From IMG/VR virus record IMGVR_UViG_3300046047_000262: a DNA stretch of 64,000 nt; one strand, given 5' to 3'. The translations under genes were made by a program, and so were the position numbers. Position 1 is the stretch's first letter. Every line of letters begins with the position of its first letter. The notes beneath the pieces are model-generated. The model saw only the letters and a list, made by a program, of their open reading frames with translations. It did not search any database and had not been told where the DNA came from. Shown here piece by piece: positions 1 to 63,700 of this stretch. The DNA comes from a virus.

Positions 1-40
1 CATTACGAGTGAGACGCTCTACCGACTGAGCTATGGGGGC
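1..40 (-). tRNA. tRNA-Thr(CGT), 3' half cut by window edge
   Basis: GCCCCCA-TA-GCTC D arm; anticodon loop CT-CGT-AA. Confidence 0.85.
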
Positions 41-69
41 ATGATACCATCATCTTGATGCTATCCACG

Positions 70-152
70 TGTCGTCAGAGGGAATCGAACCCTCAAGTCC
101 TAGGACACGGCGTTCTGAACACCGCACGTTTACCTGATTTCGTCATGACGAC
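70..152 (-). tRNA. tRNA-Leu(CAG)
   Basis: Cloverleaf, loop TT-CAG-AA, long V-arm, GGTTCGATTCC, A73. Confidence 0.9.
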
Positions 153-156
153 AATG

Positions 157-231
157 TAGCTCCATTGGGACTCGAACCCAAACCTTATGATTGAAAGTCA
201 TATATGCGCGGACCAAGCACACTGTGGAGCC
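157..231 (-). tRNA. tRNA-Glu(TTC)
   Basis: TATGA/TCATA stem, loop CT-TTC-AA, T arm GGTTCGAGTCC; D arm divergent. Confidence 0.8.
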
Positions 232-402
232 ATAAATGGATACCACTAGTACCATAGTGGCATCCATGGACGTAGCCATCGGACATGTCCATGGATGATG
301 TATAAGTTCATGCATACATGTTCATAATGTATTACACGACACGGTATTGGTACGACCGTATCATCATTATGATCCTTGTCCGATTCCTGCAGGTAGGCCA
401 CG

Positions 403-478
403 TGGTGCCCACGGTCGGACTCGAACCGACAACCCTCAGTTTAGGAAACTGATGCTCTATCCATTGAGCTACGTAGGC
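403..478 (-). tRNA. tRNA-Arg(CCT)
   Basis: Loop TT-CCT-AA, A20, encoded CCA. Confidence 0.95.
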
Positions 479-487
479 AATGATTAC

Positions 488-516
488 ATGATACCATGTT
501 CCGCCGATGATGTCAA
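488..516 (-). promoter_or_regulatory. sigma70-type promoter internal to the tRNA array
   Basis: Minus strand TTGACA-17 nt-(TGG)TATCAT just upstream of tRNA-Arg(CCT). Confidence 0.7.
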
Positions 517-525
517 TATGAATCG

Positions 526-598
526 TGCCCCGGATGGGATTCGAACCCACAACCTACTGATTAGAGGTCAGTCGCTCTATCCATTGAGCTACCAAGGC
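526..598 (-). tRNA. tRNA-Arg(TCT), C33
   Basis: ACTGA/TCAGT stem, loop CC-TCT-AA, A20. Confidence 0.92.
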
Positions 599-630
599 AT
601 ATACTAAAGATGATCATAGCAAGGTCATCA

Positions 631-706
631 TGGTGCCTCTGACAGGATTCGAACCTGCAACGCCTGGTTCCGAGGACCAGCGCTCTATCCATTGAGCTAC
701 AAAGGC
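631..706 (-). tRNA. tRNA-Arg(TCG), C33
   Basis: Loop CC-TCG-GA, A20, encoded CCA. Confidence 0.92.
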
Positions 707-707
707 G

Positions 708-781
708 TGCCCATAATCGGATTCGAACCGATAACCTTCTGTTCCGTAGACAGACGCTCTATCCAATTGAGCTATATGGGC
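708..781 (-). tRNA. tRNA-Arg(ACG)
   Basis: Loop CT-ACG-GA, A20. Confidence 0.95.
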
Positions 782-793
782 ATGATGATGAAG

Positions 794-880
794 CGGATAG
801 TGCGGGATTCGAACCCACGGATCTCATAGAAGATCACGATCTTTCCAAGATCGCTCATTCGACCACTCTGACAACTATCC
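794..880 (-). tRNA. tRNA-Ser(GGA)
   Basis: Loop TT-GGA-AA, long V-arm, G73. Confidence 0.93.
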
Positions 881-1085
881 AAGTATGATAGAACGTTTGC
901 ACTTGCCGGCATGAAACCGACAGTGCGTAGCCCGAGTCACAGATTATGGGTCTGTACCGAACACGTTCTAATCCAGATAAAGCCCTGATCCTATGATTGT
1001 CTTCAATCCTCATAGGAAGAACAATGATCTGTTTCTCATGATGTGAGCATGATAGTGAAGCCTACCGATGTTCTCACCATGATAG

Positions 1086-1172
1086 CGGGTGGAGTGGGAG
1101 TCGGACCCACGGTGGTGTTACCCACACTGGTTTAGCAAACCAGTCAGCATTCACCGAATTGCAATTCCACCC
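1086..1172 (-). tRNA. tRNA-Ser(GCT)
   Basis: Loop TT-GCT-AA, V-arm, G73; T loop variant TCCGACT. Confidence 0.85.
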
Positions 1173-1204
1173 ATGAACAGTAATCATTATACCATGAATA
1201 CTCG

Positions 1205-1290
1205 CGGAGTGTAAGGGAATCGAACCCCTAACCGGATTAACGGCATCCGTTTTCAAAACGGAGCGGACTTGCCAATAGCCCACACACTCC
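1205..1290 (-). tRNA. tRNA-Ser(TGA)
   Basis: Loop TT-TGA-AA, V-arm, G73. Confidence 0.9.
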
Positions 1291-1329
1291 ATGGAGAACC
1301 CCCATCACCACCATACGATGATGACAGGG

Positions 1330-1404
1330 TGGTACAGGTCAAGGGAATCGAACCCTAGGAATCGATCATGTAAGTATCGTCCCCGTTCCTGATAACGGAC
1401 CTGT
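1330..1404 (-). tRNA. Atypical tRNA-like gene, nominal anticodon TAC (Val)
   Basis: Perfect acceptor ACAGGTC/GACCTGT plus ACCA and a T loop; D arm abuts the acceptor with no U8-A9; loop CT-TAC-AT. Confidence 0.55.
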
Positions 1405-1569
1405 TGACATGTCTCAAGATCATGCTTCAAAGTAAGTACCACCAATCCGCCGATATCATGATGCGTTCTCTAGAATCAGCATCATGATCGTTGAGTATCG
1501 ACCGGTGGTATCCGATGGCATCTTCGCAACGACGAATGCTTCCACTGATCAAGTGGCATCGAATTATCG

Positions 1570-1642
1570 AGCGGGCAACGGGATTCGAACCCGCGGTCTC
1601 AACCTTGGCAAGGTCGCGCTTTACCAACTAAGCTATGCCCAC
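1570..1642 (-). tRNA. tRNA-Gly(GCC)
   Basis: Loop TT-GCC-AA, U73. Confidence 0.93.
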
Positions 1643-1668
1643 ATTATGGTATCAGCATTGATACCAAG

Positions 1669-1742
1669 TGCTCCCAAGTGGATTCGAACCACTGACTTCA
1701 TCTGCGTGAGAGATGCGATCTACCGGACTGATCTATAGGAAC
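1669..1742 (-). tRNA. tRNA-Val(CAC)
   Basis: Loop CT-CAC-GC, A73. Confidence 0.9.
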
Positions 1743-1744
1743 GG

Positions 1745-1821
1745 GTGCGGGAGAGGGATTTGAACCCCCAACAACATGCTTATGAGGCACGAGAGCTACC
1801 GAGTTGCTGCTTGATCCCGCG
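1745..1821 (-). tRNA. tRNA-Met(CAT), initiator-like
   Basis: CGCGGG start with C1:A72 mismatch, loop CT-CAT-AA; lacks the three G-C anticodon-stem pairs. Confidence 0.8.
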
Positions 1822-1862
1822 TGGATAATCAGGAATCGAACCTGAACGTGTACCATATACCC
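1822..1862 (-). ncRNA. 41-nt acceptor+T-arm minihelix with G3:U70 and A73
   Basis: GGGTAT-ATGGTACACGT-TCAGG TTCGATT CCTGA-TTATCC-A. Confidence 0.5.
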
Positions 1863-1868
1863 TGTTAA

Positions 1869-1944
1869 TGGTTCTCCGAGCTGGATTCGAACCAACACTA
1901 TTCCGTTCCAGAGACGGATGCATTGCCAGTTATGCTATCGGAGA
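1869..1944 (-). tRNA. tRNA-Gln(CTG)
   Basis: U1:A72, loop CT-CTG-GA, encoded CCA. Confidence 0.92.
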
Positions 1945-1976
1945 ATACACTTGGAATCATGATGACACCAAGTCCG

Positions 1977-2047
1977 AGCGGATGACGGGAATCGAACCCG
2001 TTCCGAATGCTTGGGAAGCATCCGTGCGACCACTACACCACATCCGC
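1977..2047 (-). tRNA. tRNA-Gly(CCC)
   Basis: GCGGATG acceptor, loop TT-CCC-AA, U73. Confidence 0.93.
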
Positions 2048-2072
2048 AATGATATGCTAATATCAAGTTAAG

Positions 2073-2143
2073 CTGCCCATGCTGGGATCGAACCAACGTT
2101 AAGAGTTCCAAAGACTCCCGTCTTGCCATTAAACGAATGGGCA
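2073..2143 (-). tRNA. tRNA-Gln(TTG)
   Basis: U1:A72, loop CT-TTG-GA, G73. Confidence 0.92.
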
Positions 2144-2308
2144 ATACATGGTTTTGGTTACCAGACCATGAACTGGCTTAGCTAACCCTAAGTACACACT
2201 TTCAATCAAGAAAGCTTCCCGTATCGCGTTTAAGTTGCTGTCTTCGCGCGCATCCCACAGATGAACTGCCTATCGGTTGGGGTTGTGGACTCGATAGTGA
2301 GGGAACCG

Positions 2309-2352
2309 TGATGCAGAGGGATTCGAACCCTCGATAAGCCTTATCCTGCATC
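2309..2352 (-). ncRNA. 44-nt mini-tRNA (acceptor, one hairpin, T arm)
   Basis: GATGCA-G-GATAA GGC TTATC-GAGGG TTCGAAT CCCTC-TGCATC-A; all stems perfectly paired. Confidence 0.6.
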
Positions 2353-2363
2353 CTACTACATCG

Positions 2364-2434
2364 AACTGGTGATCGGAGTCGAACCGACTTACACTGTTTT
2401 GCAGACAGCTACCTGGCCGTTTGGTTACACCAGC
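2364..2434 (-). tRNA. tRNA-Cys(GCA)
   Basis: Loop CT-GCA-AA, U73. Confidence 0.9.
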
Positions 2435-2480
2435 ATAGTACTCTCAACGTGCAGAGTACATGACAACATCTGTTATCAAG

Positions 2481-2551
2481 AGGCTCACCAGAGAATCGAA
2501 CTCTGATCGCTTGTTTACAGGACAAGTGCTCTCCCATTGAGCTAGTGAGCC
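2481..2551 (-). tRNA. tRNA-Thr(TGT), C33
   Basis: CTTGT/ACAAG stem, loop CC-TGT-AA. Confidence 0.88.
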
Positions 2552-2595
2552 ATATGTGTATATTATAACACATCTCTCAGACAAAATATACCACG

Positions 2596-2666
2596 AGCGG
2601 ATGACGGGAATCGAACCCGCATAATCAGTTTGGAAGACTGACATTCTACCATTGAACTACATCCGC
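2596..2666 (-). tRNA. tRNA-Gly(TCC)
   Basis: Loop CT-TCC-AA, U73. Confidence 0.95.
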
Positions 2667-2898
2667 ATCAATTATCATCGTCCCGCACCGGGGACGTCCA
2701 TACGCATACGAACCCGTGTGTATACTACGATGCCTTGTACGGGGCATCGTGTGGGTACATCACGAAATTCATTGTTGTATTGCACATGTTTTCCCTATCA
2801 TCACCATGAGCTCAGGTAATCATTCACATTGCAGGTCGACTCTACACGGATGATCACTGCTCATGGGTACTTTCAGACTCACAGGTAGTACGATAACG

Positions 2899-2971
2899 TG
2901 GAGACGATGGGTATCGAACCCACTACCTTCTCGATGCTAACGAGATGCTCTACCAATTGAGCTACGTCCCC
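2899..2971 (-). tRNA. tRNA-Ala(AGC), A34
   Basis: GGGGACG/CGTCTCC with G3:U70, A73; loop TT-AGC-AT. Confidence 0.92.
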
Positions 2972-3175
2972 AAAATGATCGATTATGAGTGATCATAACC
3001 GATCCATGTATCAGGAGAGCAACCTCATCATGATTATTGCATACTTCTTCGTATGCTCGTCAAGCGGTCCAAGCAGAGCAAAGAACCCAATCATTGTTGA
3101 CACTGGAAGCCCTATTGGCCACATCCTGAAACAGATGATACACCACACGTAGTACTACGTGATTCATCTACCATC

Positions 3176-3249
3176 GTGAATGACATGGGATTCGAACCCA
3201 TGATCTCTTACATTACCGTAAGCGCTCCTACCAATTGAGCTTCCATTCA
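3176..3249 (-). tRNA. Atypical tRNA with 6-nt anticodon loop, identity undetermined
   Basis: Good D and T arms; CTTAC-GGTAAT-GTAAG anticodon arm. Confidence 0.6.
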
Positions 3250-3383
3250 ACCAATCATTGAAAATCCTTTATAGCACAGGACAATCGATCATCTGGTTAT
3301 GTTATACAAGGGCACTATGATTCTGATAGAACCATGCTCTCATAAGAACCGTATTTGATGACTGTTATCATACTACGGTATCG

Positions 3384-3459
3384 TCGTGGAGGATGGATTT
3401 GAACCATCAACCTCATGGATATGAATCATGCGCTCTAACCTGACTTGAGCTACCCCACG
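3384..3459 (-). tRNA. tRNA-Met(CAT), elongator-like
   Basis: Loop TT-CAT-AT, C1:G72, A73. Confidence 0.85.
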
Positions 3460-3478
3460 ATAAGTATGATCATGATAG

Positions 3479-3551
3479 TGGAGACAATGGGATTCGAACC
3501 CACCACATTCTCCGTGCGAGGGAGAATCGCCGCCCAGGAACATGTGTCCCC
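3479..3551 (-). tRNA. tRNA-Ala(CGC)
   Basis: G3:U70, A73; loop CT-CGC-AC; unusual D arm. Confidence 0.85.
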
Positions 3552-3564
3552 ATGATGCATACCG

Positions 3565-3636
3565 TGGATACATGAGGGATTCGAACCCTCACCTTCTCCG
3601 TGCAAAGGAGATGTGCTACCATTGACACTAATGACC
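3565..3636 (-). tRNA. tRNA-Ala(TGC) with irregular acceptor stem
   Basis: Loop TT-TGC-AC; acceptor GGTCAT/ATGTATCC is bulged. Confidence 0.75.
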
Positions 3637-3643
3637 AGTATCG

Positions 3644-3727
3644 TTGTGCGTGAGGGATTCGAACCCCCGTACTTTCAATAAGAACTGGGTTACGGCCAGT
3701 CGCATTTAACCACTCTGCCAACGCACA
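3644..3727 (-). tRNA. tRNA-Tyr(GTA), C33, U1:A72
   Basis: Loop CC-GTA-AC, V-arm, A73. Confidence 0.85.
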
Positions 3728-3859
3728 ATAGTATCAAGATTGATGTGATCATGTTCCCATCCTTGATACATATGGGAGCATGCTTACAATAGGATTTACA
3801 GGTAGGTTAACCTATGAGCTACAAACCCATTATCCCTCCTACCACACCTATTGCAAACG

Positions 3860-3946
3860 CGGTCGATGAGGGATTCGAACCCCCGATAGGCTTTCACCTA
3901 TACTTGTTTTCAGGACAAGCTCCATAAGCCACTCGGACAATCGACC
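3860..3946 (-). tRNA. tRNA-Ser(TGA), C33
   Basis: Loop CC-TGA-AA, V-arm, G73; paralog of 4249-4335. Confidence 0.9.
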
Positions 3947-4144
3947 AAGCAGGATAAGTCTGCCGTTTCGACTCATCCTCGTATCATGTTACAGTAGCAT
4001 TATAATCCACTGGTGTGAACGGGAATTACTGCATGTATTCGTTCACATTGACAGCAAAGCGTATACACCTTGCTGTCATAATGGTTGCAATCCTTGATGG
4101 CATAACGGCGACACCAAGGATTTCACTGCTGTTGTAAGCATGAG

Positions 4145-4219
4145 TGCCGTTGTAGGATTCGAACCAACGATCTTCTGATTCGGGAGGTCAGATGCTCTAT
4201 CCAATTGAGCTATAACGGC
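4145..4219 (-). tRNA. Arg-type tRNA with 9-nt anticodon loop (CCG/CCCG)
   Basis: A20 Arg body like 708-781; TCTGA-CCTCCCGAA-TCAGA. Confidence 0.75.
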
Positions 4220-4248
4220 AATGGTGATAGTCAGAATTACTATCATCG

Positions 4249-4335
4249 CGGTTGATGAGGGATTCGAACCCCCGATAGGTTTTCACCTATGCTTGTTTTC
4301 GAAACAAGTTCCTTCAACCACTCGGACAATCAACC
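4249..4335 (-). tRNA. tRNA-Ser(CGA)
   Basis: Loop TT-CGA-AA, V-arm, G73. Confidence 0.93.
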
Positions 4336-4356
4336 ATAATTATCAATATGATAACG

Positions 4357-4429
4357 TTGGACTATCGGGAATCGAACCCGAATCTATGGTGCCACAGACC
4401 ATCGCTCTAACCGTTGAGCTATAGACCAC
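4357..4429 (-). tRNA. tRNA-His(GTG), G-1 opposite A73
   Basis: Loop CT-GTG-GC. Confidence 0.85.
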
Positions 4430-4676
4430 ATAGGTCACACGATTCAAGCCATCATGTGACCAGTTTAACGTCATGAGACGTATTATTGTATAGGGTGAAT
4501 GGTATGCCCATTCTTGATGCTCCAATCCTTTATGTATGAACGTGTGGTTATATCCATACAGGTATTGGAGATGTTCCGCCAACCAGATGACGCCTGGCCA
4601 CGCACCACTGAGACTTGATGGTGATGAGATCCCACTACACGAGTGAATAGCTTATGCCTACAACGTGTGATCATCG

Positions 4677-4750
4677 TGCCGACAGTCCGGGTCGAACGGA
4701 CAACCTCAGAGGCTTCAACTCTGCGCTCTCGCCAATTGAGCTATGACGGC
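4677..4750 (-). tRNA. tRNA-Phe(GAA)
   Basis: Loop TT-GAA-GC, A73. Confidence 0.9.
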
Positions 4751-5004
4751 ATAAACGGGAAGCTTTTCGGTCTTGTACTTCAACTATCATCGCTTCCCTT
4801 CAGTATTCCAACTGCTGATACCATATGACGATGGTATCATTGTTCACATTGAATGAGTGTGAACAATCACAGGGTTTATCGCTCGGTACGATGCTCCTAC
4901 ACCCTATAGACAGTCATTCTTATCGGCGTTATGACTACGTGCGTGATTACCTTATCCTATCGTCATGATGTCACTCATAACGGTGATCCCGCTTTATTAC
5001 CCAG

Positions 5005-5075
5005 TGTCTTAAGAGAATTATGATATCTCGCATACTTGCTTCTATCCAAGTGCTCTTCCTCTGAGCTATTAAGAC
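5005..5075 (-). tRNA. Atypical tRNA: Lys-type body, 8-nt anticodon loop, ATCATAA T loop
   Basis: GTCTTAA/TTAAGAC acceptor; D arm identical to Lys 8241 and 8991; ACTTG-GATAGAAG-CAAGT. Confidence 0.6.
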
Positions 5076-5160
5076 ATTTTCAGTCGGATGGATCGTCAAT
5101 CCATCGTTACGGTTGTTCCTACCGTGGTCTTATATAATGACTTTAGCCTACGACTGAACG

Positions 5161-5244
5161 TGCATCCGACCTGACTCGAACAGGCAAGTCCATGATGGAC
5201 GATGGTTCCTAGGACCATTGTGTTTACCATTTCACCACGGATGC
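5161..5244 (-). tRNA. tRNA-Leu(TAG), C33
   Basis: Loop CC-TAG-GA, V-arm, A73. Confidence 0.9.
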
Positions 5245-5249
5245 ATGTG

Positions 5250-5323
5250 TGCCCACAAGAGGGCTTGAACCTCTGACCTTGGAATTATGAGTTCCGCGCT
5301 CTGACCGACTGAGCTATGCGGGC
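5250..5323 (-). tRNA. tRNA(CAT), Ile2- or Met-type
   Basis: Loop CT-CAT-AA; third CAT tRNA in the array. Confidence 0.85.
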
Positions 5324-5462
5324 ATTAATGGCGGCTTTCCCGCTAGCACGATGTTCTCATCGAACGAGCAACGACATTGTACGGGCATAACAACCTGAGT
5401 TGATTAAGTTAATAACCACTTGAGCCAGGTTGACCTTGAGGCGACTGTTGCCATACCCCTCG

Positions 5463-5526
5463 TAGTCTCACGAGGAATCGAACCTCGTCGTTTGATGGAA
5501 CCTCAGGAATACTACCAATTGAGACC
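5463..5526 (-). ncRNA. 64-nt shrunken tRNA with the tRNA-Glu acceptor stem
   Basis: GGTCTCA/TGAGACT-A identical to Glu(CTC) at 7496; intact T arm; D and anticodon arms reduced. Confidence 0.55.
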
Positions 5527-5534
5527 ATTTTAGA

Positions 5535-5653
5535 CCTAAGTGAGTGAGATGCGACTGCTTTTTCAATGCTGCACTACCAATCCCCACGGAGATTGAGCGG
5601 GATTCGAACCCGCAAGGACTTAGTTATTGTCCACCACTTGCCACTCACTCAGG
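5535..5653 (-). ncRNA. YrlA/Y-RNA-like RNA with a circularly permuted tRNA domain
   Basis: 12-bp terminal stem enclosing V-arm, T arm (GCGGG TTCGAAT CCCGC), loop-closed acceptor hairpin, TA, D-like arm. Confidence 0.65.
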
Positions 5654-5721
5654 ACTGGAATCCGTATTAGGACACCAGCAGAAATGATTATAGGAGTAAC
5701 TAATTCCAATCATTACCTACG

Positions 5722-5805
5722 CGGATGATGCGGGGGTCGAACCCGCCACGGTATTACCCTAACCTCATTAGCAGTGAGGCGCTTTAGCCGCTCAGCCTAC
5801 CATCC
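5722..5805 (-). tRNA. tRNA-Ser(GCT)
   Basis: Loop CT-GCT-AA, V-arm, G73. Confidence 0.9.
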
Positions 5806-5989
5806 ATTGTTTTTCAAACAGCTCCAAGAGGAACAGATTGATTTATTATTGAGTTACAGATCCATAATGTCGTGTATTGTCAATGTATCCTAACATTGAC
5901 ACGAGGTGGCCTTCCCCCGAACCTTGATGGACGACACCATCAAGGTTTCCAACATGATCATACGTTCATGCCGCCAATTCCACGACTAG

Positions 5990-6041
5990 AGTCTCAAAGA
6001 GGAATCGAACCTCAACATGCACACGGCATGGTCATCCAGAC
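5990..6041 (-). ncRNA. 52-nt D-armless mini-tRNA
   Basis: GTCTGGA/TTGAGAC acceptor with one mismatch, CATGC-CGTGT-GCATG hairpin, GAGG TTCGATT CCTC. Confidence 0.45.
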
Positions 6042-6159
6042 TGAATCCCAACGAGTGTAATCTCGTTAGAGCATCGAAAGTCTTCGATACACCAACATCC
6101 GCATTAGGGTTCGTCCCCCCTCCTCACCCAGTCGACACTGGTTGAGGTCAGATATTGCG

Positions 6160-6231
6160 CGACCACGACGGGAGTCGGACCCGCTGTCCTCTCCTCGACA
6201 GGGAGATGCCTGACCGTCAGGCTCCGTGGCC
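6160..6231 (-). tRNA. tRNA-Asp(GTC)
   Basis: Loop CT-GTC-GA, G73, T loop variant TCCGACT. Confidence 0.85.
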
Positions 6232-6405
6232 ATATGATTCTGGTGGGACTGGTGTACCTATCTAGGGTCATAGACCAATAGGTACGCGAATCCTGATCAC
6301 CAGCAAGTAATGCGGATGATTGCCTGCCGTGGCTACAGCAGTCATCACGTCTAGCGAGCCGTGCGTCATGTTTCCATCACGTATATGACCGTTTCAACGA
6401 TTGCG

Positions 6406-6461
6406 TGGAGCGGCACGGATTCGAACCGTGCTTCGGGTATAGGTTCGAATGAATCCACCCC
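6406..6461 (-). ncRNA. 56-nt tmRNA-TLD-like Ala-identity mini RNA
   Basis: GGGGTGG/CCGCTCC-A with G3:U70; stemless D loop; TTCG/CGAA hairpin; CACGG TTCGAAT CCGTG. Confidence 0.6.
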
Positions 6462-6615
6462 GCATTTCTGGCTCGGGATAACCAATCCCAAGCACTATTG
6501 AACCAATATGATGACCAGCAGAATGGTTAACCTCTACTATTCACCATCAAACACCCCTATCACATGATCCTGTCACCATTCACATGTAAGCATACGGAAT
6601 ATAACCATATACCAG

Positions 6616-6689
6616 TACCTTCTACGGGATTCGAACCCGTACTAAACAGTTCCTTAGACTGTCGCCTCTACCAATTGGGCTAAGAAGGC
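6616..6689 (-). tRNA. tRNA-Leu(AAG), A34, no long V-arm
   Basis: Loop CT-AAG-GA; 5-nt variable loop; Leu-type D arm; A73. Confidence 0.88.
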
Positions 6690-6747
6690 AAAGACTGGTC
6701 GATCATATTGGATCAACCAGTTCTAGAGCATCTCATTCGACGACTCG

Positions 6748-6830
6748 TACCCCCACTCGGACTTGAACCGAGATTCCTTGCGGAAACCGCTTTTGAGGCG
6801 GTCGTGTCTACCAATTCCAACCATAGGGGC
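6748..6830 (-). tRNA. tRNA-Leu(CAA)
   Basis: Loop CT-CAA-AA, V-arm, A73. Confidence 0.93.
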
Positions 6831-6833
6831 GGG

Positions 6834-6917
6834 GTGTACAACGGGACTCGAACCCGCATGGGATAACTCCCATCAGGGTCACAACCTGATGTCGCAAACC
6901 ATATCGACCTTGTACAC
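6834..6917 (-). tRNA. tRNA-His(GTG) with long V-arm
   Basis: G-1:C73, loop TT-GTG-AC, V-arm TGGGA-GTTA-TCCCA. Confidence 0.85.
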
Positions 6918-6919
6918 AG

Positions 6920-6992
6920 CGACCACGACCGGAATTGAACCGGTGACCTCTTGCGTGACAAGCAAGCGTTCTTACCCCTGAACTACGCGGCC
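6920..6992 (-). tRNA. tRNA-Asp(GTC)
   Basis: Loop TT-GTC-AC, G73. Confidence 0.93.
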
Positions 6993-7196
6993 ATATCATC
7001 CTTTACGGAGATGAATTGAGATGGCACTCAATCTAGTATCCCATGCCATCACCGCAGGGTTCGTCGCCCCCTGATTAAACGTGCAACGATGATAACCATC
7101 ATTATCAGCGCTTCCTGATGATCCGACTCATTCTCACTAAACGCTGATTAGACTATTTGAATGAGCTATGTGATATCAATATGTACTCACGTTGCG

Positions 7197-7268
7197 AGCC
7201 TTGACTTAGAATCGAACTAAGATCAACTGCTTACTAAACAGTCGCACGAACCATTGTGCTATCAAGGC
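7197..7268 (-). tRNA. tRNA-Thr(AGT), A34
   Basis: GCCTTGA acceptor, loop TT-AGT-AA. Confidence 0.9.
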
Positions 7269-7327
7269 ATTCATAGTATTCCGAAACATGTAATCACGTA
7301 TTGGAATGTTAATATGGAAAAGATTAG

Positions 7328-7398
7328 TGCCCCATCCGGGAATCGAACCCGGTTCTGACCCTCCACGGGCCTGTTCTAACCAGTGTCACTAATGGGTT
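7328..7398 (-). tRNA. Degenerate or atypical tRNA (nominal TGG)
   Basis: Intact T arm; GGCCC-GTGGA-GGGTC anticodon arm; frayed acceptor end. Confidence 0.45.
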
Positions 7399-7405
7399 GT
7401 TAATC

Positions 7406-7486
7406 CTGATGGCATCAGGTAATTAGGCTGATGACATCAGAGAACGTTCCTTTGGTATCATCGGGTAATTAGGCCGACGATACACC
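7406..7486. repeat. Two hairpins sharing the loop GTAATTAGG
   Basis: catcag-gtaattagg-ctgatg and catcgg-gtaattagg-ccgacg. Confidence 0.7.
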
Positions 7487-7495
7487 GGACCTCCG

Positions 7496-7568
7496 TAGTC
7501 TCAGCGGGAATCGAACCCGCAATCTTCTCCTTGAGAGGGAGACGAGGTAACCGTTGCTCTATGAGACC
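7496..7568 (-). tRNA. tRNA-Glu(CTC)
   Basis: Loop CT-CTC-AA. Confidence 0.92.
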
Positions 7569-7829
7569 ATAAGTCATGGCTGATAGTTCCATGACTGTAT
7601 CATGGTACTCCATGAACGAGACTGTTCTCAGTCAGCGAGGATAGTGTTTATAGAACCTGAGGTATGGTTTAACTAACCCACAGTAACAGGCAGTTGACTT
7701 CTACTCCATCAATACGATATTCCATCCAATTCGATGTGATGTTGAAGCGTGCGACGAGGAACCCGATGTCCCATGGTTATCAATCATGGTCCGCTATTTC
7801 CACTATTAGTGGCTGCACGATGACACACG

Positions 7830-7884
7830 TGGAATTATGGGAATCGAACCCATGACCATGCTGTTAGCAGGGCACCATGTTTCC
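7830..7884 (-). ncRNA. 55-nt D-armless mini-tRNA containing CTGCTAA
   Basis: GGAA/TTCC-A ends, ATGGG TTCGATT CCCAT T arm, single central arm. Confidence 0.45.
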
Positions 7885-7905
7885 TGTCAACAAGTGTTGA
7901 CAAAG

Positions 7906-7976
7906 TACGCCCACCAGGAATCGAACCCAAGTCAAGAGGTTTGGAAGCTCTTGTGTTACCACTACACCATAGGCGT
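7906..7976 (-). tRNA. tRNA-Trp(CCA), A73
   Basis: Loop TT-CCA-AA with C31:C39 mismatch. Confidence 0.8.
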
Positions 7977-8039
7977 ATGTTGACGTTCCCTATGTGTGGT
8001 CGCGTCATGATGATGTATAAGCAAGATCGTTGCTTATCG

Positions 8040-8120
8040 TGGTGCATGGGGGACTCGAACCCTCGAACCCTGTGGGAGCTGGTTTACAGCCAGCCGCAAT
8101 TGCCGCTATGCGAATGCACC
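8040..8120 (-). tRNA. tRNA-Tyr(GTA)
   Basis: G1:C72, loop CT-GTA-AA, V-arm, A73. Confidence 0.92.
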
Positions 8121-8148
8121 ATAAAGGTGGGTCAATGCGTTATACTCG

Positions 8149-8215
8149 CGTACATTGGGGAATCGAACCCCGCTGTTTGAAGAGTTTCACTTCACTTTGA
8201 TCCGGACACCAGTCC
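8149..8215 (-). pseudogene. tRNA-like remnant
   Basis: T arm GGGG TTCGATT CCCC, TGAAG/CTTCA arm, GGAC-TGGT-GTCC D-like arm; no pairing acceptor found. Confidence 0.35.
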
Positions 8216-8240
8216 AAAACCGAGCTGCAGATCGGTTTCG

Positions 8241-8312
8241 TGCCTCAGGAGAATTATGATATCTCGACCCTCTGTTTAAGAGACAGATGCTCTTCCTCTG
8301 AGCTACTAAGGC
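8241..8312 (-). tRNA. tRNA-Lys(CTT) with ATCATAA T loop
   Basis: Loop CT-CTT-AA; T arm GAGAT-ATCATAA-TTCTC. Confidence 0.85.
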
Positions 8313-8313
8313 G

Positions 8314-8385
8314 TACGGGTAGATAGAATTGAACTATCCTTTCTTCTGTATCAGAGAAGTGTTCTAACCGATGAACTATACCCGT
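8314..8385 (-). tRNA. tRNA-Ile(GAT)
   Basis: Loop CT-GAT-AC, A73. Confidence 0.88.
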
Positions 8386-8494
8386 AAACGAACGGCTCCC
8401 TCTCAAAGTCATTGCTCCTCGTTTTAGAACAAACATTATGAGGGGGTTACCGGGCAGACTGTCTCTCGACTAAAGCTGGTTGCCAACAACTCAG

Positions 8495-8577
8495 TGCCCT
8501 TACTCGGACTCGAACCGAGACTCCTTACGGAAGCCGATTTTAAGTCGGCCGTGTCTACCAATTCCAACCATAAGGGC
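8495..8577 (-). tRNA. tRNA-Leu(TAA)
   Basis: Loop CT-TAA-AA, V-arm. Confidence 0.93.
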
Positions 8578-8582
8578 ATTCG

Positions 8583-8712
8583 GAGTACGTATCGGAATTG
8601 AACCGGTATACGTGGTGCGCTTAACCAATACCCACGAATATGAATATCTTCATATCACGTAGGCGCTGGAATTGGACCAGATCATCACGCACCACGCCAG
8701 ACCACTCGTACC
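8583..8712 (-). ncRNA. Double-elbow tRNA-mimic RNA
   Basis: Open acceptor plus T arm joined by a perfect 9-bp helix to a second T arm plus loop-closed acceptor. Confidence 0.6.
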
Positions 8713-8794
8713 TTCCTACCAGATTCGGTAAGACTTGGAAAGATGCATCATTCCAAGCATTATGAGACATTATACTAGTATTTCTCATAACCTG

Positions 8795-8876
8795 TGCCTC
8801 TACTCGGACTCGAACCGAGACTCCTCACGGAAACTGATTTTAAGTCAGTCGTGTCTACCAATTCCACCATAAAGGC
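8795..8876 (-). tRNA. tRNA-Leu(TAA), second copy
   Basis: Loop CT-TAA-AA; paralog of 8495 and 6748. Confidence 0.93.
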
Positions 8877-8990
8877 ATAATGTGAGCATCGCACTCACAA
8901 GGTTGCTATAGCGTTCGGCTCATTAGTGGTCACAACTAACCATGATAGTACTTAAACTATGCTGCTAACTCAAAGCCTACTGATACTGCG

Positions 8991-9062
8991 TGCCCCCGGA
9001 GAATTACGATATCTCGACACGCGGATTAAAAGTCCGCTGCTCTTCCTCTGAGCTACAAGGGC
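8991..9062 (-). tRNA. tRNA-Lys(TTT) with ATCGTAA T loop
   Basis: Loop CT-TTT-AA; T arm GAGAT-ATCGTAA-TTCTC. Confidence 0.85.
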
Positions 9063-9152
9063 ATGATGTTGACGATTGTACACTTGCCAACAGGTTTGCG
9101 TGATATATTCGCTTATCGCGGGTAGACGCATCTACCTGATAACCATGAGAAC

Positions 9153-9266
9153 AAGATGTACGAGGAATCGAACCTCGGTCGCCGACCCTGGCAATGAAGG
9201 AGTCGAACCTTCCACAGGATGGGTCTAACATCCTGTCTGACCTACCATAACAGTCAGCATACATCT
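9153..9266 (-). ncRNA. 114-nt tRNA-like RNA with two T arms (nominal anticodon AGA)
   Basis: AGATGTA/TACATCT acceptor; 5-bp D stem; 8-bp anticodon stem; two GG-TTCGA-NT-CC arms. Confidence 0.65.
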
Positions 9267-9290
9267 CAACATTGTTCTCACATGTCATCG

Positions 9291-9379
9291 CTGGTCTAGC
9301 AGGAATCGAACCTGCGATACCCTTTTACGGGATTCTGACGCATTAACAGTGCGTTGGCATGCCGCTTGCCGATAGACCA
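9291..9379 (-). tRNA. tRNA-Asn(GTT) with long V-arm
   Basis: U1:A72, G73, loop CT-GTT-AA; about 20-nt variable region with CCC-GTAAAA-GGG. Confidence 0.85.
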
Positions 9380-9695
9380 ATAAGTACGGGATCTTACCGT
9401 TCCTCAATGATACTCTTCTCAATACCATTAACCATGTATACCTGCGATAATAGGAGTTAATCACTGTAAGCATTTGATGCTTCGGATATGTTCCATAGTG
9501 TATGCGATGTGTCCTACGCGAGATGCAGCATAGATGCACGGTTCACATAGATTATCGGACAAGCCATACTCCGTTAATCGTATTGATGAGATATGACAAG
9601 GTGGTCACAGGGCACCTACACCTCGTCATTGCACGCGGTTATCAATGATAACCATGTAAGCCATTGGTGTCCCTTAGCTTACATTATGCGTACCG

Positions 9696-9766
9696 TGCTC
9701 CCACGGGGAATCGAACCCCGATTTACTGATTAAGAGTCAGCAGTTCTACCGTTGAACTATAGAAGC
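9696..9766 (-). tRNA. tRNA-Lys(CTT)
   Basis: Loop CT-CTT-AA, canonical T loop. Confidence 0.92.
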
Positions 9767-9966
9767 AAAAACCCGTATGACCCTTTGAGGGTAACTCACT
9801 CTCAAACTAGAATGGGTCATACGGGAAAATCACCAAACAAAGGAGAAGGATCGAACCTTTCCTAGCAAAAACCGTATGACCGTTTGAGGACAACTCGCTC
9901 TCAAACTGGAAATGGGTCATATGGTAAATAATACGCTAACAAAGGAGTACTGTGCCTTGCCCTAGC
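9767..9966. repeat. Two tandem 100-nt structured repeats (candidate sRNAs)
   Basis: Units 9767-9866 and 9867-9966 share the CCGTATGACC...TTTGAG..CTCAAA...GGTCATA hairpin, AACAAAGGAG and CCTAGC. Confidence 0.85.
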
Positions 9967-10008
9967 ATACCAAACCGCATATGCTTCTGCCGTATTGCTA
10001 CGACATAG

Positions 10009-10079
10009 CTCCCCGAGAAAGAATCGAACTTTCATTAAATGATTAACAGTCATCCGTTCTGCCCTTGAACTACCGGGGA
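10009..10079 (-). tRNA. tRNA-Asn(GTT)
   Basis: TCCCCGG acceptor, G73, loop CT-GTT-AA. Confidence 0.92.
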
Positions 10080-10087
10080 ATAAAGAT

Positions 10088-10566
10088 GCCGGTGATAACG
10101 CTCACCGGCGGGCGGCATGGTTGATACCTTGATGAGATCATGCTGTTCTCATCATTGGTCAGGATCATTCGTCCTGATTGGTCAGCTCTCATGCCATCAT
10201 GATGACTGGTATGATTGCGTATGTGATTCATCTGAAGAAACTTTTTTAATGACTACGGGCCGTCAGTGTTTCATGAATGACGTTGGTGTCCCGCTCATGG
10301 GTTATCATCGCGTGCTCGGAATACAATGTAATCCTCGTCAGGTGTTGCCACCATCGGTTGTAAGGGCGATGTCTTCCCCATGCTCGATCCTGTGTTCAGG
10401 CGCTCCGTCACGTGCTCACATGGTGACCAAACACGATAATTCTTTAACATTCCGGTATCGTGACCGTCGCATACATCTCCCGCAGTAATGAACTGCCATC
10501 CTCGTTAAGTTATGTGACCATCCTATCGTGACTTGCCTTGGTTGTCAACCTCGGCGTGTCGCGATG
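10088..10566. ncRNA. Candidate large structured RNA(s)
   Basis: About 480 nt with no credible ORF, packed with nested hairpins. Confidence 0.4.
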
Positions 10567-10582
10567 ACCTCGATGATCATCG

Positions 10583-10656
10583 TCGGCTATGTCAGATTCG
10601 AACTGACGGTCTCCTGCTCCCAAAGCAGGCGGATTACCAAGCTTTCCTAATAGCCG
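10583..10656 (-). tRNA. tRNA-Pro(TGG)
   Basis: CGG start, loop TT-TGG-GA, A73. Confidence 0.92.
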
Positions 10657-10732
10657 TTATCTTTTCAATTTTTGTTTCCGATGAACCAGTGTATCATAAT
10701 CTTTCGATTACGCAACATCGGCGTGTCGGTCG

Positions 10733-10804
10733 TCGGAATGGACTGGTTCGAACAGTCGTTCTCCTGCACCCGAAGCAGGCGGATTACCACTTTCCTACAT
10801 CCCG
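10733..10804 (-). tRNA. tRNA-Pro(CGG)
   Basis: CGG start, loop TT-CGG-GT, A73. Confidence 0.92.
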
Positions 10805-10824
10805 TTACATTCTTCAATTATACA

Positions 10825-10859
10825 CTGAGCCCCGAATCCTTTAAGGGTCCGGGGCTCAG
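10825..10859 (-). terminator. Strong GC hairpin ahead of the first tRNA (terminator or attenuator)
   Basis: CTGAGCCCCG...CGGGGCTCAG inverted repeat. Confidence 0.55.
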
Positions 10860-10881
10860 AACATCTGATGTGTAATCACAC

Positions 10882-11028
10882 TTACACGATAAGCCCCACT
10901 CTCATGGGATAACCGAAATCTTGAATTGTATTATTCTGCAAGGACCATGACACTGGTTTCAGACATGGGAGCATGGCTGAACGCTTAATGTCATTACGAT
11001 GTATCATACTTGATTGTAACGATCTCAT
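10882..11028 (-). CDS. 48-aa leader ORF (MRSLQSS...MRVGLIV)
   Basis: GGAAGGAG Shine-Dalgarno 6 nt before ATG, directly downstream of a consensus promoter; below the ORF-track cutoff. Confidence 0.55.
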   Translation of the reverse strand: MRSLQSSMIHRNDIKRSAMLPCLKPVSWSLQNNTIQDFGYPMRVGLIV

Positions 11029-11066
11029 AGCCAACTCCTTCCTTCATGTCCACTTGCCTGATACTT

Positions 11067-11095
11067 ATTGTACCACACAATATCAACGTTTGCAA
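11067..11095 (-). promoter_or_regulatory. Array promoter P2
   Basis: TTGCAA-17 nt-TACAAT with extended TGTGG. Confidence 0.8.
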
Positions 11096-11147
11096 AACAA
11101 TCTAACAAATTCTTTTTTTCAACTCGTACTGATGAGCTTGTAATATC

Positions 11148-11175
11148 ACTATACCACATAATATCAGTATGTCAA
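11148..11175 (-). promoter_or_regulatory. Array promoter P1
   Basis: TTGACA-16 nt-TATAGT with extended TGTGG; sequence paralogous to P2. Confidence 0.8.
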
Positions 11176-11244
11176 AACAATATCACCATTATTTTTCGAT
11201 TATTCTGATAACACCCGATAACCATTGGTATACCAGCGTTCCCA

Positions 11245-12366
11245 TCATCTCTGTAACATGACTATGGTCTTCAATACCGCGAGTTCAAGGAACGGTTTGC
11301 CATCAGGTGCCCACACCATGTTCTGCATCGCCTCACCAAGGAACCCGAATGCTCTGACCAGTTTCTCATTACCCGTGTCCTGAGCGATCTTCCTGTGGTT
11401 CTTGAATAACAGCATATCATTCTCGCTTTCCTCATTATTCGCAAGGAACAGCATGCTCCTGGTATCGTTGAGCAGATTCTGAATGAGCGTCTTGGGATCA
11501 TCCCCGTCCACAATGGCATCATTGATGACCTTGAATGCGTTGATGACATCACGCTGCTCATATACCGCCCTGGTCAGATCGATACTATGATTGACTGGGA
11601 TCTCACCAGTGGACAGGATGCGTTCCAATGTGGACAATGTTTCCCTTACGGAACCACCGCTTGAACTGACACCACCGGCTTTGATGACTTGTAGTATCTG
11701 GTTCTTCGATATCCTGTGATCCTTTACCAGATCGGTCGCATCCTCTTTGGATATGCCGTACCCTTCGGATTTGCATACATTCATACACAGGTTACCAAGA
11801 TCCTTGACCGATACCAGATGGAACGCCCTGTTCTGGATTCTTGATGTCAATGTCGTCGGCATGGCGTTGACATTCGTGGTACACATGATGAACAACGAGT
11901 TCACATGCTCATCCTCCAACGGTATCAGTAATGAATCGTAAGCGATCTTCGATAGGTTATGCACCTCATCGAGAATCCATACTGGTCTATTGACGCCATC
12001 GGCGGCTCGTCGTGACTGATCGACGATTCTACGGACATCCTCCACTGAACCGTTATTCGCCATGGATAGGTAATGGACACCAAGATTGGTTCCATCATCG
12101 ATACTGGTGCATACATCACATACGTTACATGGTTCACCATCATCGGTGAGATGTTGACAGTTCACTGCTTTCGACATGATCTTCGCCACACTGGTCTTAC
12201 CCGTTCCACGGGGTCCTGCGAAGATGTACGCATCCGCAAGCCTGTGATTGATCACGGCGTTCCTGAGATCATTGACGACAGCATCCTGTCCTATGACTTG
12301 GCTCCATGTCCGAGGACGATACTTCTTGTATAGTTCGATATGTTTAGTGTTATCATTTGTGGTCAT
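11245..12366 (-). CDS. dnaX: DNA polymerase III clamp loader gamma/tau-like (short form)
   Basis: LYKKYRP, GPRGTGKT, Zn module C..PCNVCDVC, ILDEVH. Confidence 0.93.
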   Translation of the reverse strand: MTTNDNTKHIELYKKYRPRTWSQVIGQDAVVNDLRNAVINHRLADAYIFAGPRGTGKTSVAKIMSKAVNCQHLTDDGEPCNVCDVCTSIDDGTNLGVHYLSMANNGSVEDVRRIVDQSRRAADGVNRPVWILDEVHNLSKIAYDSLLIPLEDEHVNSLFIMCTTNVNAMPTTLTSRIQNRAFHLVSVKDLGNLCMNVCKSEGYGISKEDATDLVKDHRISKNQILQVIKAGGVSSSGGSVRETLSTLERILSTGEIPVNHSIDLTRAVYEQRDVINAFKVINDAIVDGDDPKTLIQNLLNDTRSMLFLANNEESENDMLLFKNHRKIAQDTGNEKLVRAFGFLGEAMQNMVWAPDGKPFLELAVLKTIVMLQR

Positions 12367-30500: not shown

Positions 30501-30538
30501 GTATACTCAATATCAATTGATTGTATATGTGTACATAT

Positions 30539-31672
30539 TTAATCGTCGAATCTAGCGAGCTCTGCTATAGCACCTCGTATATCAGGGTCTTCAGGATACC
30601 CCGCTCTACTGAACATACCATCCTTATATTCCCATATCTTGTTCGTTCTGATGGCTGCGGTTTCATCGTTCTTTATGATATTCGATACCTCAGTGATCTC
30701 AGTGACTTTATGTTCCCCTGTCTTCTTGATCTTTGCTATCTGGACAATATAATCAATGCTCTCTGCGATATCCTTATTAATAGCTGACATCGGCATACTG
30801 GCTGCTCCTGGCGATTTTTTGACGAACCTGGCCATCTTACCTAAAGCTCTGTTCGGATCATCAGCGTGAATAGTAGTCAAGGATCCTTCATAACCAGAAT
30901 TGGCGGCGGTCAGGAAGTCAGCGAACTCAGGACCCCTGGTTTCACCAATGATGACTCTTGCTGGTCTCATTCTGTTTACCTGAGCCACAACCCATGCAAG
31001 GGATGCCTGATCCTTTGCATCACGACCTGGTGCATCCGGGTAGCTGGCAAGATAGGATACATCTTGGATGTCCAGTCTCAATTCGGGGGCATCCTCACAT
31101 ACGATGACTCTCTCATCTTCTTTGAAATACTTTACCATGGCCGATAGCAGGGTCGTCTTACCTGCTCCGGATCCACCTGAAACGACTACCGTCTTCTTCT
31201 TCTCCACAAACAACTGGATAAGCTTACGCATATCCGAATTCATGGTGCCCATTGCGGTCAATGATTGCATAGTCTGGCCAAGATCATTCTTCACCATGGT
31301 TACCTGAGGGAACCCTTCAACGGCTACTGGTGGCAGAACAATATGAGTCCTAGCCCTGACTTCCTTGCCATCAACCATAAGCCTGATGCTACCCTCGAAC
31401 AAACAGAACGATTCCCTGATCTTATTACCATAATGAACCATATTACTTTCCAGGTCCTCGGTACCTCTCATGAAATCGTCATTGTCTTCCCATCTGACGT
31501 ATTGTTTCGTCCCATTGACCTCAATTGGATTCACGGGAACACGCTTACCATTCTTGGTCATGAAGATGTTATCAGGACCGTTGATCATGATTTCCGATAC
31601 TGACGGCATGGCTAACAGAGTGAACAGCACCTTCCATTGTTTGGTTGAGGTTTTACTCAGGTCCACAGACAT
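30539..31672 (-). CDS. CpaF/TadA/VirB11 secretion ATPase
   Basis: SEIMING, SGGSGAGKTT, RMRPARVIIGETRG, GSLTTIHA. Confidence 0.92.
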   Translation of the reverse strand: MSVDLSKTSTKQWKVLFTLLAMPSVSEIMINGPDNIFMTKNGKRVPVNPIEVNGTKQYVRWEDNDDFMRGTEDLESNMVHYGNKIRESFCLFEGSIRLMVDGKEVRARTHIVLPPVAVEGFPQVTMVKNDLGQTMQSLTAMGTMNSDMRKLIQLFVEKKKTVVVSGGSGAGKTTLLSAMVKYFKEDERVIVCEDAPELRLDIQDVSYLASYPDAPGRDAKDQASLAWVVAQVNRMRPARVIIGETRGPEFADFLTAANSGYEGSLTTIHADDPNRALGKMARFVKKSPGAASMPMSAINKDIAESIDYIVQIAKIKKTGEHKVTEITEVSNIIKNDETAAIRTNKIWEYKDGMFSRAGYPEDPDIRGAIAELARFDD

Positions 31673-63280: not shown

Positions 63281-63700
63281 TTACCCTTTGCTCGAATCGT
63301 AGGTCACCGAGTAATCGGATATGTGGGCATTGTTCACAGTGATCAGGAAGGTATCCTGCCCTGATGGTATGTTTACTGTGATGTTATCATCGTCATCGGC
63401 AAGATTCATCGTGGACAGTACTTCGCCTGTTGATGATCTTACTTCCATGATCGCTGTTTGACCGCCATTGGTCGCAGGTCTCCTATCAACAGTGAACCCT
63501 GTCACGGTACCCGAGTTCTGTAAGGATGCCTTATCCAATGCTGTTTTCATACTGGATACATCTGACCTCATGCTATTGGTTATGGTGGTTCGACGTTGAT
63601 CGATGATCGATGGCACCGCCACTGCCGAGATGATCGCGGCTATGATGACCACGACGATCATCTCGATCAACGTGAAACCCCTTCTGATTGTAAGACCCAT
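63281..63700 (-). CDS. Type IV pilin
   Basis: RRG-FTLIEMIVVVII prepilin motif. Confidence 0.88.
   Translation of the reverse strand: MGLTIRRGFTLIEMIVVVIIAAIISAVAVPSIIDQRRTTITNSMRSDVSSMKTALDKASLQNSGTVTGFTVDRRPATNGGQTAIMEVRSSTGEVLSTMNLADDDDNITVNIPSGQDTFLITVNNAHISDYSVTYDSSKG

Follow-up and report, generated by a model that had tools for sequence, protein, structure and literature searches.

Small RNAs that look like tRNAs and do not decode are known from the tRNA cluster of phage T4, where rnaC (species 1, 139 nucleotides (nt)) and rnaD (species 2, 119 nt) are annotated as small stable RNAs directly after tRNA-Arg, at the end of the cluster. We know of no role assigned to either of them. Other RNAs keep only part of the tRNA shape. 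In transfer-messenger RNAs (tmRNAs), which are about 350 nt long, the tRNA-like domain consists of an acceptor stem and a T arm with a stemless D loop, and a long helix replaces the anticodon arm; permuted, two-piece tmRNA genes present these parts in the order T arm, 3′ acceptor strand, linker, 5′ acceptor strand. The pair G3·U70, which marks alanine identity, sits in the aminoacylated acceptor stem of tmRNA. In D-armless mitochondrial tRNAs, the D arm is replaced by a loop and the anticodon stem below the acceptor/T-arm stack is lengthened; they keep an anticodon loop, and decode. We report here on an element of 130 nt found in the IMG/VR virus record IMGVR_UViG_3300046047_000262, a stretch of 64,000 nt that we call the window. 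The element lies on the minus strand at 8712-8583 (nt 1 being position 8712 and nt 130 position 8583), within a tRNA array and on the array strand, flanked by two tRNA-Leu genes.

We tentatively read this element as a tRNA-derived, non-decoding stable RNA of about 130 nt, which would be co-transcribed with the array and excised by the tRNA-processing enzymes of the host; we lean towards this reading without being confident of it. The element ends 5 nt upstream of a tRNA-Leu gene. Its outer T arm is identical, over 15 nt out of 15, to the T arm of a tRNA-Asp of the same array (6930-6944), which indicates that at least the 3′ part of the element is tRNA-derived. The D stem and the anticodon stem-loop (5 base pairs (bp) and a 7-nt loop) of a canonical tRNA are absent. 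A long helix is found instead, which opens into a three-way junction; as this branched body takes the place of the D and anticodon arms, the RNA is unable to decode. The parts of the element are, in the order of the RNA from 5′ to 3′:

8707 to 8712, minus strand: acceptor-like 5′ strand (nt 1-6, GGTACG), pairing with 8584-8589 at a pair probability of 0.70-0.94.
8698 to 8706, minus strand: outer D-like loop, stemless (nt 7-15 or 7-16, AGTGGTCTGG, containing G10 and G11), read from the sequence.
8687 to 8697, minus strand: 5′ strand of the long helix (nt 16-26), pairing with 8610-8620 at a pair probability of 0.76-1.0.
8666 to 8680, minus strand: inner T-loop-like hairpin (nt 33-47, CTGG-TCCAATT-CCAG), with a 4-bp stem and a 7-nt loop, of probability 0.54.
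8630 to 8664, minus strand: closed acceptor-like stem with its cap hairpin (nt 49-83), pair probability 0.87-1.0.
8621 to 8629, minus strand: inner D-like loop, stemless (nt 84-92 or 84-93, ATTGGTTAAG, containing G87 and G88), read from the sequence.
8610 to 8620, minus strand: 3′ strand of the long helix (nt 93-103), given by the fold and the pair probabilities.
8591 to 8607, minus strand: outer T arm (nt 106-122, CGG-TTCAATT-CCG), with the 15-nt identity to tRNA-Asp and a pair probability of 0.16-0.39.
8583 to 8589, minus strand: acceptor-like 3′ strand (nt 124-129, CGTACT) followed by a discriminator-like C (nt 130), read from the sequence; CCA is not encoded.

Every string and helix named in a first-pass annotation of this DNA was found on the minus strand between 8712 and 8583. 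The acceptor-like stem, GGTACG (nt 1-6)/CGTACT (nt 124-129), has 6 bp, of which 5 are Watson-Crick and the other is G1·U129, and below it A7 stands opposite A123. The long helix, CGTGGTGCG/CGCACCACG, has 9 Watson-Crick pairs (nt 17-25/94-102) and reaches 11 bp with one G·U at each end. A six-base connector joins it to the inner T-like hairpin, the 7-nt loop of which fits U-N-C-R-A; on the other strand, four bases separate it from the outer T arm. The inner acceptor-like stem, GCCTACG/CGTGGGT (nt 49-55/77-83), has 7 bp including two G·U, and continues past a bulged U56 with 8 more (nt 57-64/69-76) up to a GATA loop, giving 15 bp in total. In the outer T arm, the loop TTCAATT is closed by a G:C pair, and the stem has only 3 contiguous G-C pairs (nt 108-120), then a C107×A121 mismatch, then A106:U122.

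The choice of the minus strand as the sense strand, which the first-pass annotation had based on G:U pairs, was borne out by the fold energies, by the six G·U pairs of the element, which fit this strand, and by the direction of the tRNA genes, all of which are on the minus strand. The minimum free energy (MFE) was −49.4 kcal/mol on the minus strand (z −3.64; 1 of 200 shuffles as good) and −36.8 kcal/mol on the plus strand (z −2.35), a difference of 12.6 kcal/mol in favour of the minus strand. The secondary-structure layout proposed at first pass also agreed with our computations, its energy of −47.1 kcal/mol lying 2.3 above the MFE, and the pair probabilities being about 0.9-1.0 for the acceptor stem, the long helix and the capped stem. 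Hairpins of T-loop type, defined by a stem of at least 4 bp and a loop T[TC]C[AG]ANN, numbered 12 in the 105.4 kb of the coding part of the window, both strands counted, so that about 0.015 are expected per 130 nt. Finally, the two halves of the element, nt 1-56 and nt 77-130, align in register with a score equalled in 7 of 2000 shuffles, in a test that was chosen after the sequence had been seen.

None of the established families was recognised in the element. Searches with the tRNA model RF00005 gave no match over 8583-8712, either at the gathering score (29 bits), at E≤10 (over 8560-8800) or at E≤5 (over 1-11300). ARAGORN called neither a tRNA nor a tmRNA there, and no Rfam 15 family matched even at E≤10 in a covariance-model search; a match of this kind is what the first-pass annotation had named as removing the novelty. 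YrlA (RF02553) did not match the element, and no Ro/TROVE protein was found among the 50 open reading frames (ORFs) of the window scanned against Pfam. For mascRNA (RF01684), weak matches were obtained elsewhere in the array (including 5464-5526 and 6407-6461) and none on 8583-8712. Two other candidates were rejected. An intron-containing tRNA does not fit, since splicing out nt 27-92 would give a helix that lacks an anticodon loop. The idea of a coding region was discarded as well, the ORFs being short and without relatives; for the only ORF across the element (55 aa), the sole match among 5.8 billion sequences was the window's own entry.

In the reading that we favour, the element would be transcribed together with the tRNA array. 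RNase P would cut before G1, guided by a 12-layer acceptor/T-arm stack composed of the 6 acceptor pairs and of a 6-layer T stem that includes the C·A mismatch. The 3′ end would arise when RNase P cuts at the next tRNA-Leu and the product is trimmed, and CCA would be added post-transcriptionally, as is required for most tRNAs of the array, which, like the element, have no encoded CCA. We infer each of these steps beyond the transcribed strand. RNase P processes tRNA-like substrates that are not tRNAs, and CCA-less T4 precursors (PMC11143913). The mature RNA may then act as a tRNA look-alike, that is, as a decoy or sponge for proteins binding to the tRNA top half, or as a scaffold for them; this role is the least supported step of the proposal.

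The stemless D-like loops, and the long helix in place of the anticodon arm, could also be read as a mimic of the tmRNA domain, present once in the usual order and once permuted. The cap hairpin (nt 57-76) would then be excised, by analogy with the two-piece tmRNA genes, leaving two pieces with two acceptor ends, and the product would attract alanyl-tRNA synthetase or SmpB. With the numbering of the outer stem, the inner stem reads G78:C54, U79:A53, G80·U52, which places a G·U at the equivalent of 3:70; in addition, a separate element of the array (6461-6406) has G3·U70, a discriminator A and a T arm, and distant relatives of the replicon carry a tmRNA gene. However, neither the tmRNA models (RF00023) nor ARAGORN matched the element, the sole tmRNA-model fragment of the array being at 5597-5613. 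The 130 nt are fully occupied by five helices, and neither a tag frame nor pseudoknots are present. In the outer stem, U3:A127 stands in place of G3·U70, the G·U at the equivalent place being found only in the closed inner stem, in a register that was our own choice. We consider this explanation very improbable.

Several results weigh against the element being a stable tRNA-derived RNA. First, fold stability by itself does not distinguish it: when 26 spacer segments of the array were compared with 60 shuffles, the element had a z of −3.12, and 10 of the 25 other segments had a more negative minus-strand z. Second, its tRNA-like top half is imperfect, with 6 acceptor pairs starting with a G·U, an A·A at 7:66 and a C·A in the T stem, and it is poorer than in the other odd elements of the array; the outer T hairpin has a probability of just 0.16-0.39. 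Third, the GG of both D-like loops are mostly paired in the ensemble, with unpaired probabilities of 0.18/0.19 and 0.21/0.05. Fourth, the element is dispensable, as some related lineages are without it: their contigs join 8579 to 8877 or to 8910, and lack the element together with the upstream tRNA-Leu copy and the three hairpins that lie in between. Last, no homologue was found in the phages, plasmids, IMG/VR or metagenome contigs searched.

The homologue searches were as follows. A covariance model (R1), built from the single sequence of the element and the structure proposed at first pass, gave 164 bits on the element itself, the next best site scoring 11 bits; it matched nothing in the other loci retrieved, in the T4 locus or in two whole related IMG/VR records (G001 and G002). 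Exact words of 23 and 25 nt taken from the element were found 0 and 0 times in IMG/VR viral contigs. A loop-pair pattern retrieved 12 loci from metagenome contigs, of which four read as tmRNA 3′ ends, one as a tRNA and the rest as unrelated sequences, the window's own sequence not being among them. A second such pattern retrieved 2 loci from IMG/VR viral contigs, each composed of a tRNA T arm and spacer and without an R1 match. With blastn against phage and plasmid records, the flanking tRNA-Leu parts alone were returned, or nothing.

Closer relatives of the replicon itself were also searched for, and none was found. Identity in the clamp loader was at most 40% in viral contigs, and about 31% in genome contigs, plasmids and phages, and the GyrA-like protein had no relative in viral contigs. 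G001 (345 kb, with inverted terminal repeats) and G002 (189 kb) share 40% identity with the window in the clamp loader. They carry arrays of about 12 kb, with 49 and 47 tRNA matches respectively; their gene order differs, and in both of them a tmRNA gene is located about 5 kb upstream of that for the clamp loader.

Sequence variation was available from the metagenome runs that contain the stretch, which are labelled as bioreactor sludge. Two sludge runs carry the stretch nearly unchanged. Contigs from three runs contain a diverged version of 8298-8746, element included; in one of them (X1), 54 substitutions and 10 gaps were counted in 449 nt, that is, about 86% identity. The persistence of the element in this lineage is one of the points in favour of the reading that we prefer. 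The indels listed for the diverged variant within the element are an insertion of one base at 8605, in the outer T stem (5′ strand), a one-base deletion at 8623, in the inner D-like loop, and two changes in the cap stem (3′ strand), a deletion of one base at 8636 and an insertion of one at 8640. The idea that nt 1-29 are unchanged in this variant was dropped, the contig graph being ambiguous.

The element might instead be debris: a chimeric or decayed remnant of a tRNA gene, with a T arm derived from a tRNA-Asp-like copy, joined to a hairpin-rich spacer, transcribed, degraded and functionless. Fragments of this kind are common in the array, where 15 T-arm motifs were found outside the detected tRNAs, and the outer T stem and the acceptor stem carry mismatches. 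Strong folding is general in the spacers, as the comparison above illustrates, the element stands alone, no paralogue having been found in the window or in the arrays of the two relatives, and related lineages do without it. On the other hand, its two long nested helices are perfect (9 Watson-Crick pairs in one, 7+8 bp in the other) and close exactly at the tRNA-like junctions; its halves are similar in register; and it was kept in a lineage that has diverged by about 14% in this region. The block that contains it is, moreover, not a fresh duplication, since the two flanking tRNA-Leu copies, identical at 75 of 84 columns, differ by three stem pairs that changed on both sides, two in the anticodon stem and one in the acceptor stem. 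From their sequences, both copies appear to be maintained. We think that debris is an unlikely explanation, though one to be taken seriously.

The first-pass annotation had gone further, and proposed two tRNA elbows joined through their anticodon stems, one open and one permuted. In such a model, an open outer elbow and a circularly permuted inner elbow would share the 11-bp helix and face elbow-binding factors. Equivalently, the element could be described as a pseudo-dimer of two units of about 55 nt that would pair by domain swap, with an open tRNA-like end and a permuted, capped end; excision of the cap would in that case yield a two-piece RNA with two acceptor ends. The topology proved internally consistent. 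The order acceptor strand, UGGU D-like loop, helix strand, connector, CAATT T arm, acceptor strand occurs twice, the two units align, both T loops fit U-N-C-R-A with a G:C closing pair, the TCC T loop is also found in two detected tRNAs of the array, and both stacks can reach 12 layers. In the diverged variant, for which the data are incomplete and cover indels only, those at 8605 and 8623 would fall where a two-elbow structure tolerates them, and would disturb the helices of the MFE structure.

No evidence was obtained, however, for either of the D-loop/T-loop elbows themselves. In the nearest-neighbour ensemble, the main partners of G10 and G11 are C108 and C107 (P 0.66-0.68), and the MFE structure pairs nt 9-12 with nt 106-109 and nt 87-91 with nt 29-33, G87 and G88 being engaged with nt 32-33. 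The T hairpins have probabilities of 0.54 (inner) and 0.39 (outer), and both D-like and both T loops are free together in only 0.1% of the ensemble; since energy models ignore tertiary contacts, this figure represents a lack of support for the elbows and not a disproof. No homologue came to the support of the model. A descriptor of the design, written post hoc, was run on the array of the window, the arrays of the two relatives, the T4 tRNA region and 105 kb of coding sequence. It matched the element and, falsely, one site across real tRNAs, and nothing in the last three sets. We regard the double elbow as improbable, and the domain-swapped pseudo-dimer as equally so; a single tRNA-like top half on a non-decoding body remains our preferred description.

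Other tRNA-like pieces were noticed in the array, all on the minus strand. The piece at 9266-9153 (114 nt) combines a D arm with two 7-bp stems, one an acceptor stem with Watson-Crick pairs only and the other an anticodon-like stem with a loop TTAGACC, and goes on with two T arms in a row, a small hairpin lying between them; its best Rfam match is tRNA-Sec, at 20 bits, and ARAGORN did not call it. A second T arm is thus not unique to the element. At 6461-6406 (56 nt), the G3·U70 acceptor stem, discriminator A, stemless D loop and 5-bp T arm come without an anticodon arm; this piece scores 20 bits with the mascRNA model and looks like a bare acceptor/T-arm domain of alanine type. A mini element of 64 nt at 5526-5463 likewise has an acceptor stem and a T arm without an anticodon arm, an element of 124 nt at 5712-5589 has long hairpins, and a near-normal cloverleaf of 72 nt at 1404-1333, with an odd anticodon loop, was missed by both detectors. 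Two more pieces of about 55 nt, at 2308-2363 and 5990-6041, have a T arm and a matching acceptor stem. Pieces with this combination were reported neither by ARAGORN nor by Rfam at gathering score. The array thus holds odd pieces with 7-pair acceptor stems, all Watson-Crick or with one or two G·U, and 5-bp T stems, which are not decodable tRNAs. Sequence comparison and the R1 model revealed no likeness between them and the element.

Most spacers of the array (232-10581) fold far better than shuffled sequences on the tRNA strand, with z down to −8.0 at 3947-4143 and z≤−2.5 in 14 of the 26 segments. Judging from these predicted folds, the array looks like a string of structured RNAs rather than tRNAs parted by junk.

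The array opens the window, its roughly 50 tRNA genes lying within 69-10804 on the minus strand. ARAGORN detected 47 tRNAs in it, and Rfam gave 46 matches at gathering score in the window, all of them tRNA, 3 of which were not among the ARAGORN genes. The immediate neighbours of the element are:

8494 to 8577, minus strand: tRNA-Leu(UAA) copy 1, found by ARAGORN and by Rfam (47 bits), starting 5 nt past the last base of the element.
8713 to 8793, minus strand: spacer with three hairpins, separating the element from tRNA-Leu copy 2; fold −25.0 kcal/mol, z −3.54.
8794 to 8876, minus strand: tRNA-Leu(UAA) copy 2, upstream, found by ARAGORN and Rfam, which some related lineages lack together with the element.

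In this spacer, the first hairpin has the word TATAAT in its loop, and a weak promoter-like match is located at 8788-8759. The best sigma-70-like match of the region, a strong promoter-like site, lies just upstream of the first tRNA of the array, at 11175-11148 on the minus strand (TTGACA, 16 nt, TATAGT, with a TG), and is, from its sequence, a candidate promoter for the whole array.

Outside the array, the window has genes for a clamp loader, an NAD-dependent ligase, a sigma factor, GyrA-like and TopA-like proteins, HU and a dUTPase. Its Pfam content also includes a TraG/TraD-type coupling protein, a secretion ATPase, pilin-like proteins and a sortase. These conjugation-type genes (28011-31672, 37874-39115, 49397-50269 and 63281-63700: coupling protein, secretion ATPase, two pilin-like proteins, sortase) adjoin replication genes, and both pilin-like proteins have an N-terminal methylation motif. 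From this association, the replicon looks like a giant, conjugative, plasmid-like element rather than a tailed phage.

Large phages and giant plasmid-like elements carry arrays of tRNA genes, in which tRNA-like, non-decoding small RNAs are encoded as well. The element would be a further build of such an RNA, with a tRNA top half on a branched body that may include another, permuted one. Were the two-elbow fold true, it would represent a new class of tRNA mimic, holding two tRNA-binding factors at a fixed distance, and a compact natural scaffold on which to study elbow recognition by RNase P, the CCA-adding enzyme, modification enzymes, synthetases and tRNA-targeting defence nucleases; it would, in addition, point to the use of tRNA decoys by mobile elements, beside their tRNAs. 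The element is a single locus of an uncultured element, and is to be taken as a lead rather than as a result. The statement made at first pass that no described RNA class has this architecture stands for the specific design: two T-loop hairpins at opposite ends of one helix were not found described in the literature searched, from which most subscription journals and the T4 papers of the 1970s were outside coverage. It does not stand in general, the class of non-decoding tRNA-like RNAs in phage tRNA clusters being already known, with T4 rnaC and rnaD as examples.

Non-decoding mimics of the tRNA top half or L shape include YrlA (RF02553), mascRNA/menRNA (RF01684), the t-elements of plant mitochondria, and the skipping-rope, DUF2693-FD and salivarius-1 RNAs. 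Several of these mimics are freed by RNase P or build up as stable RNAs, and a 2026 preprint describes three bacterial tRNA-mimic families. The element would resemble them as such a mimic, and differs from them in that it matched no Rfam family at E=5 and in its two T-loop hairpins at opposite helix ends, an arrangement that was not found described for any of them in the literature searched.

The element shares with the D-armless mitochondrial tRNAs the D-replacement loop and the long helix, and differs by its three-way junction and by the lack of an anticodon loop. In layout it resembles the tRNA-like domain of tmRNA, and its inner domain has the part order of the permuted tmRNA genes; unlike tmRNA, it is only 130 nt long, without a tag frame, pseudoknots, a match to the tmRNA models or a G3·U70 in its open stem.

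T4 rnaC and rnaD differ from the element in sequence, R1 having no match on either and only 10-bit matches on two T4 tRNAs, and in their replicon, a T4-like phage as against a giant plasmid-like element. The fold of rnaC is four-way and cloverleaf-like, whereas that of the element has a helix ending in a T-loop hairpin and a closed acceptor-like stem. In rnaC, a stem closes the fold, which has long hairpins and, beside the 3′ end, a T arm; and, like the element, the two T4 RNAs lie in a tRNA cluster, on the tRNA strand and beside a tRNA gene, and do not decode, their lengths of 119 and 139 nt bracketing its 130 nt.

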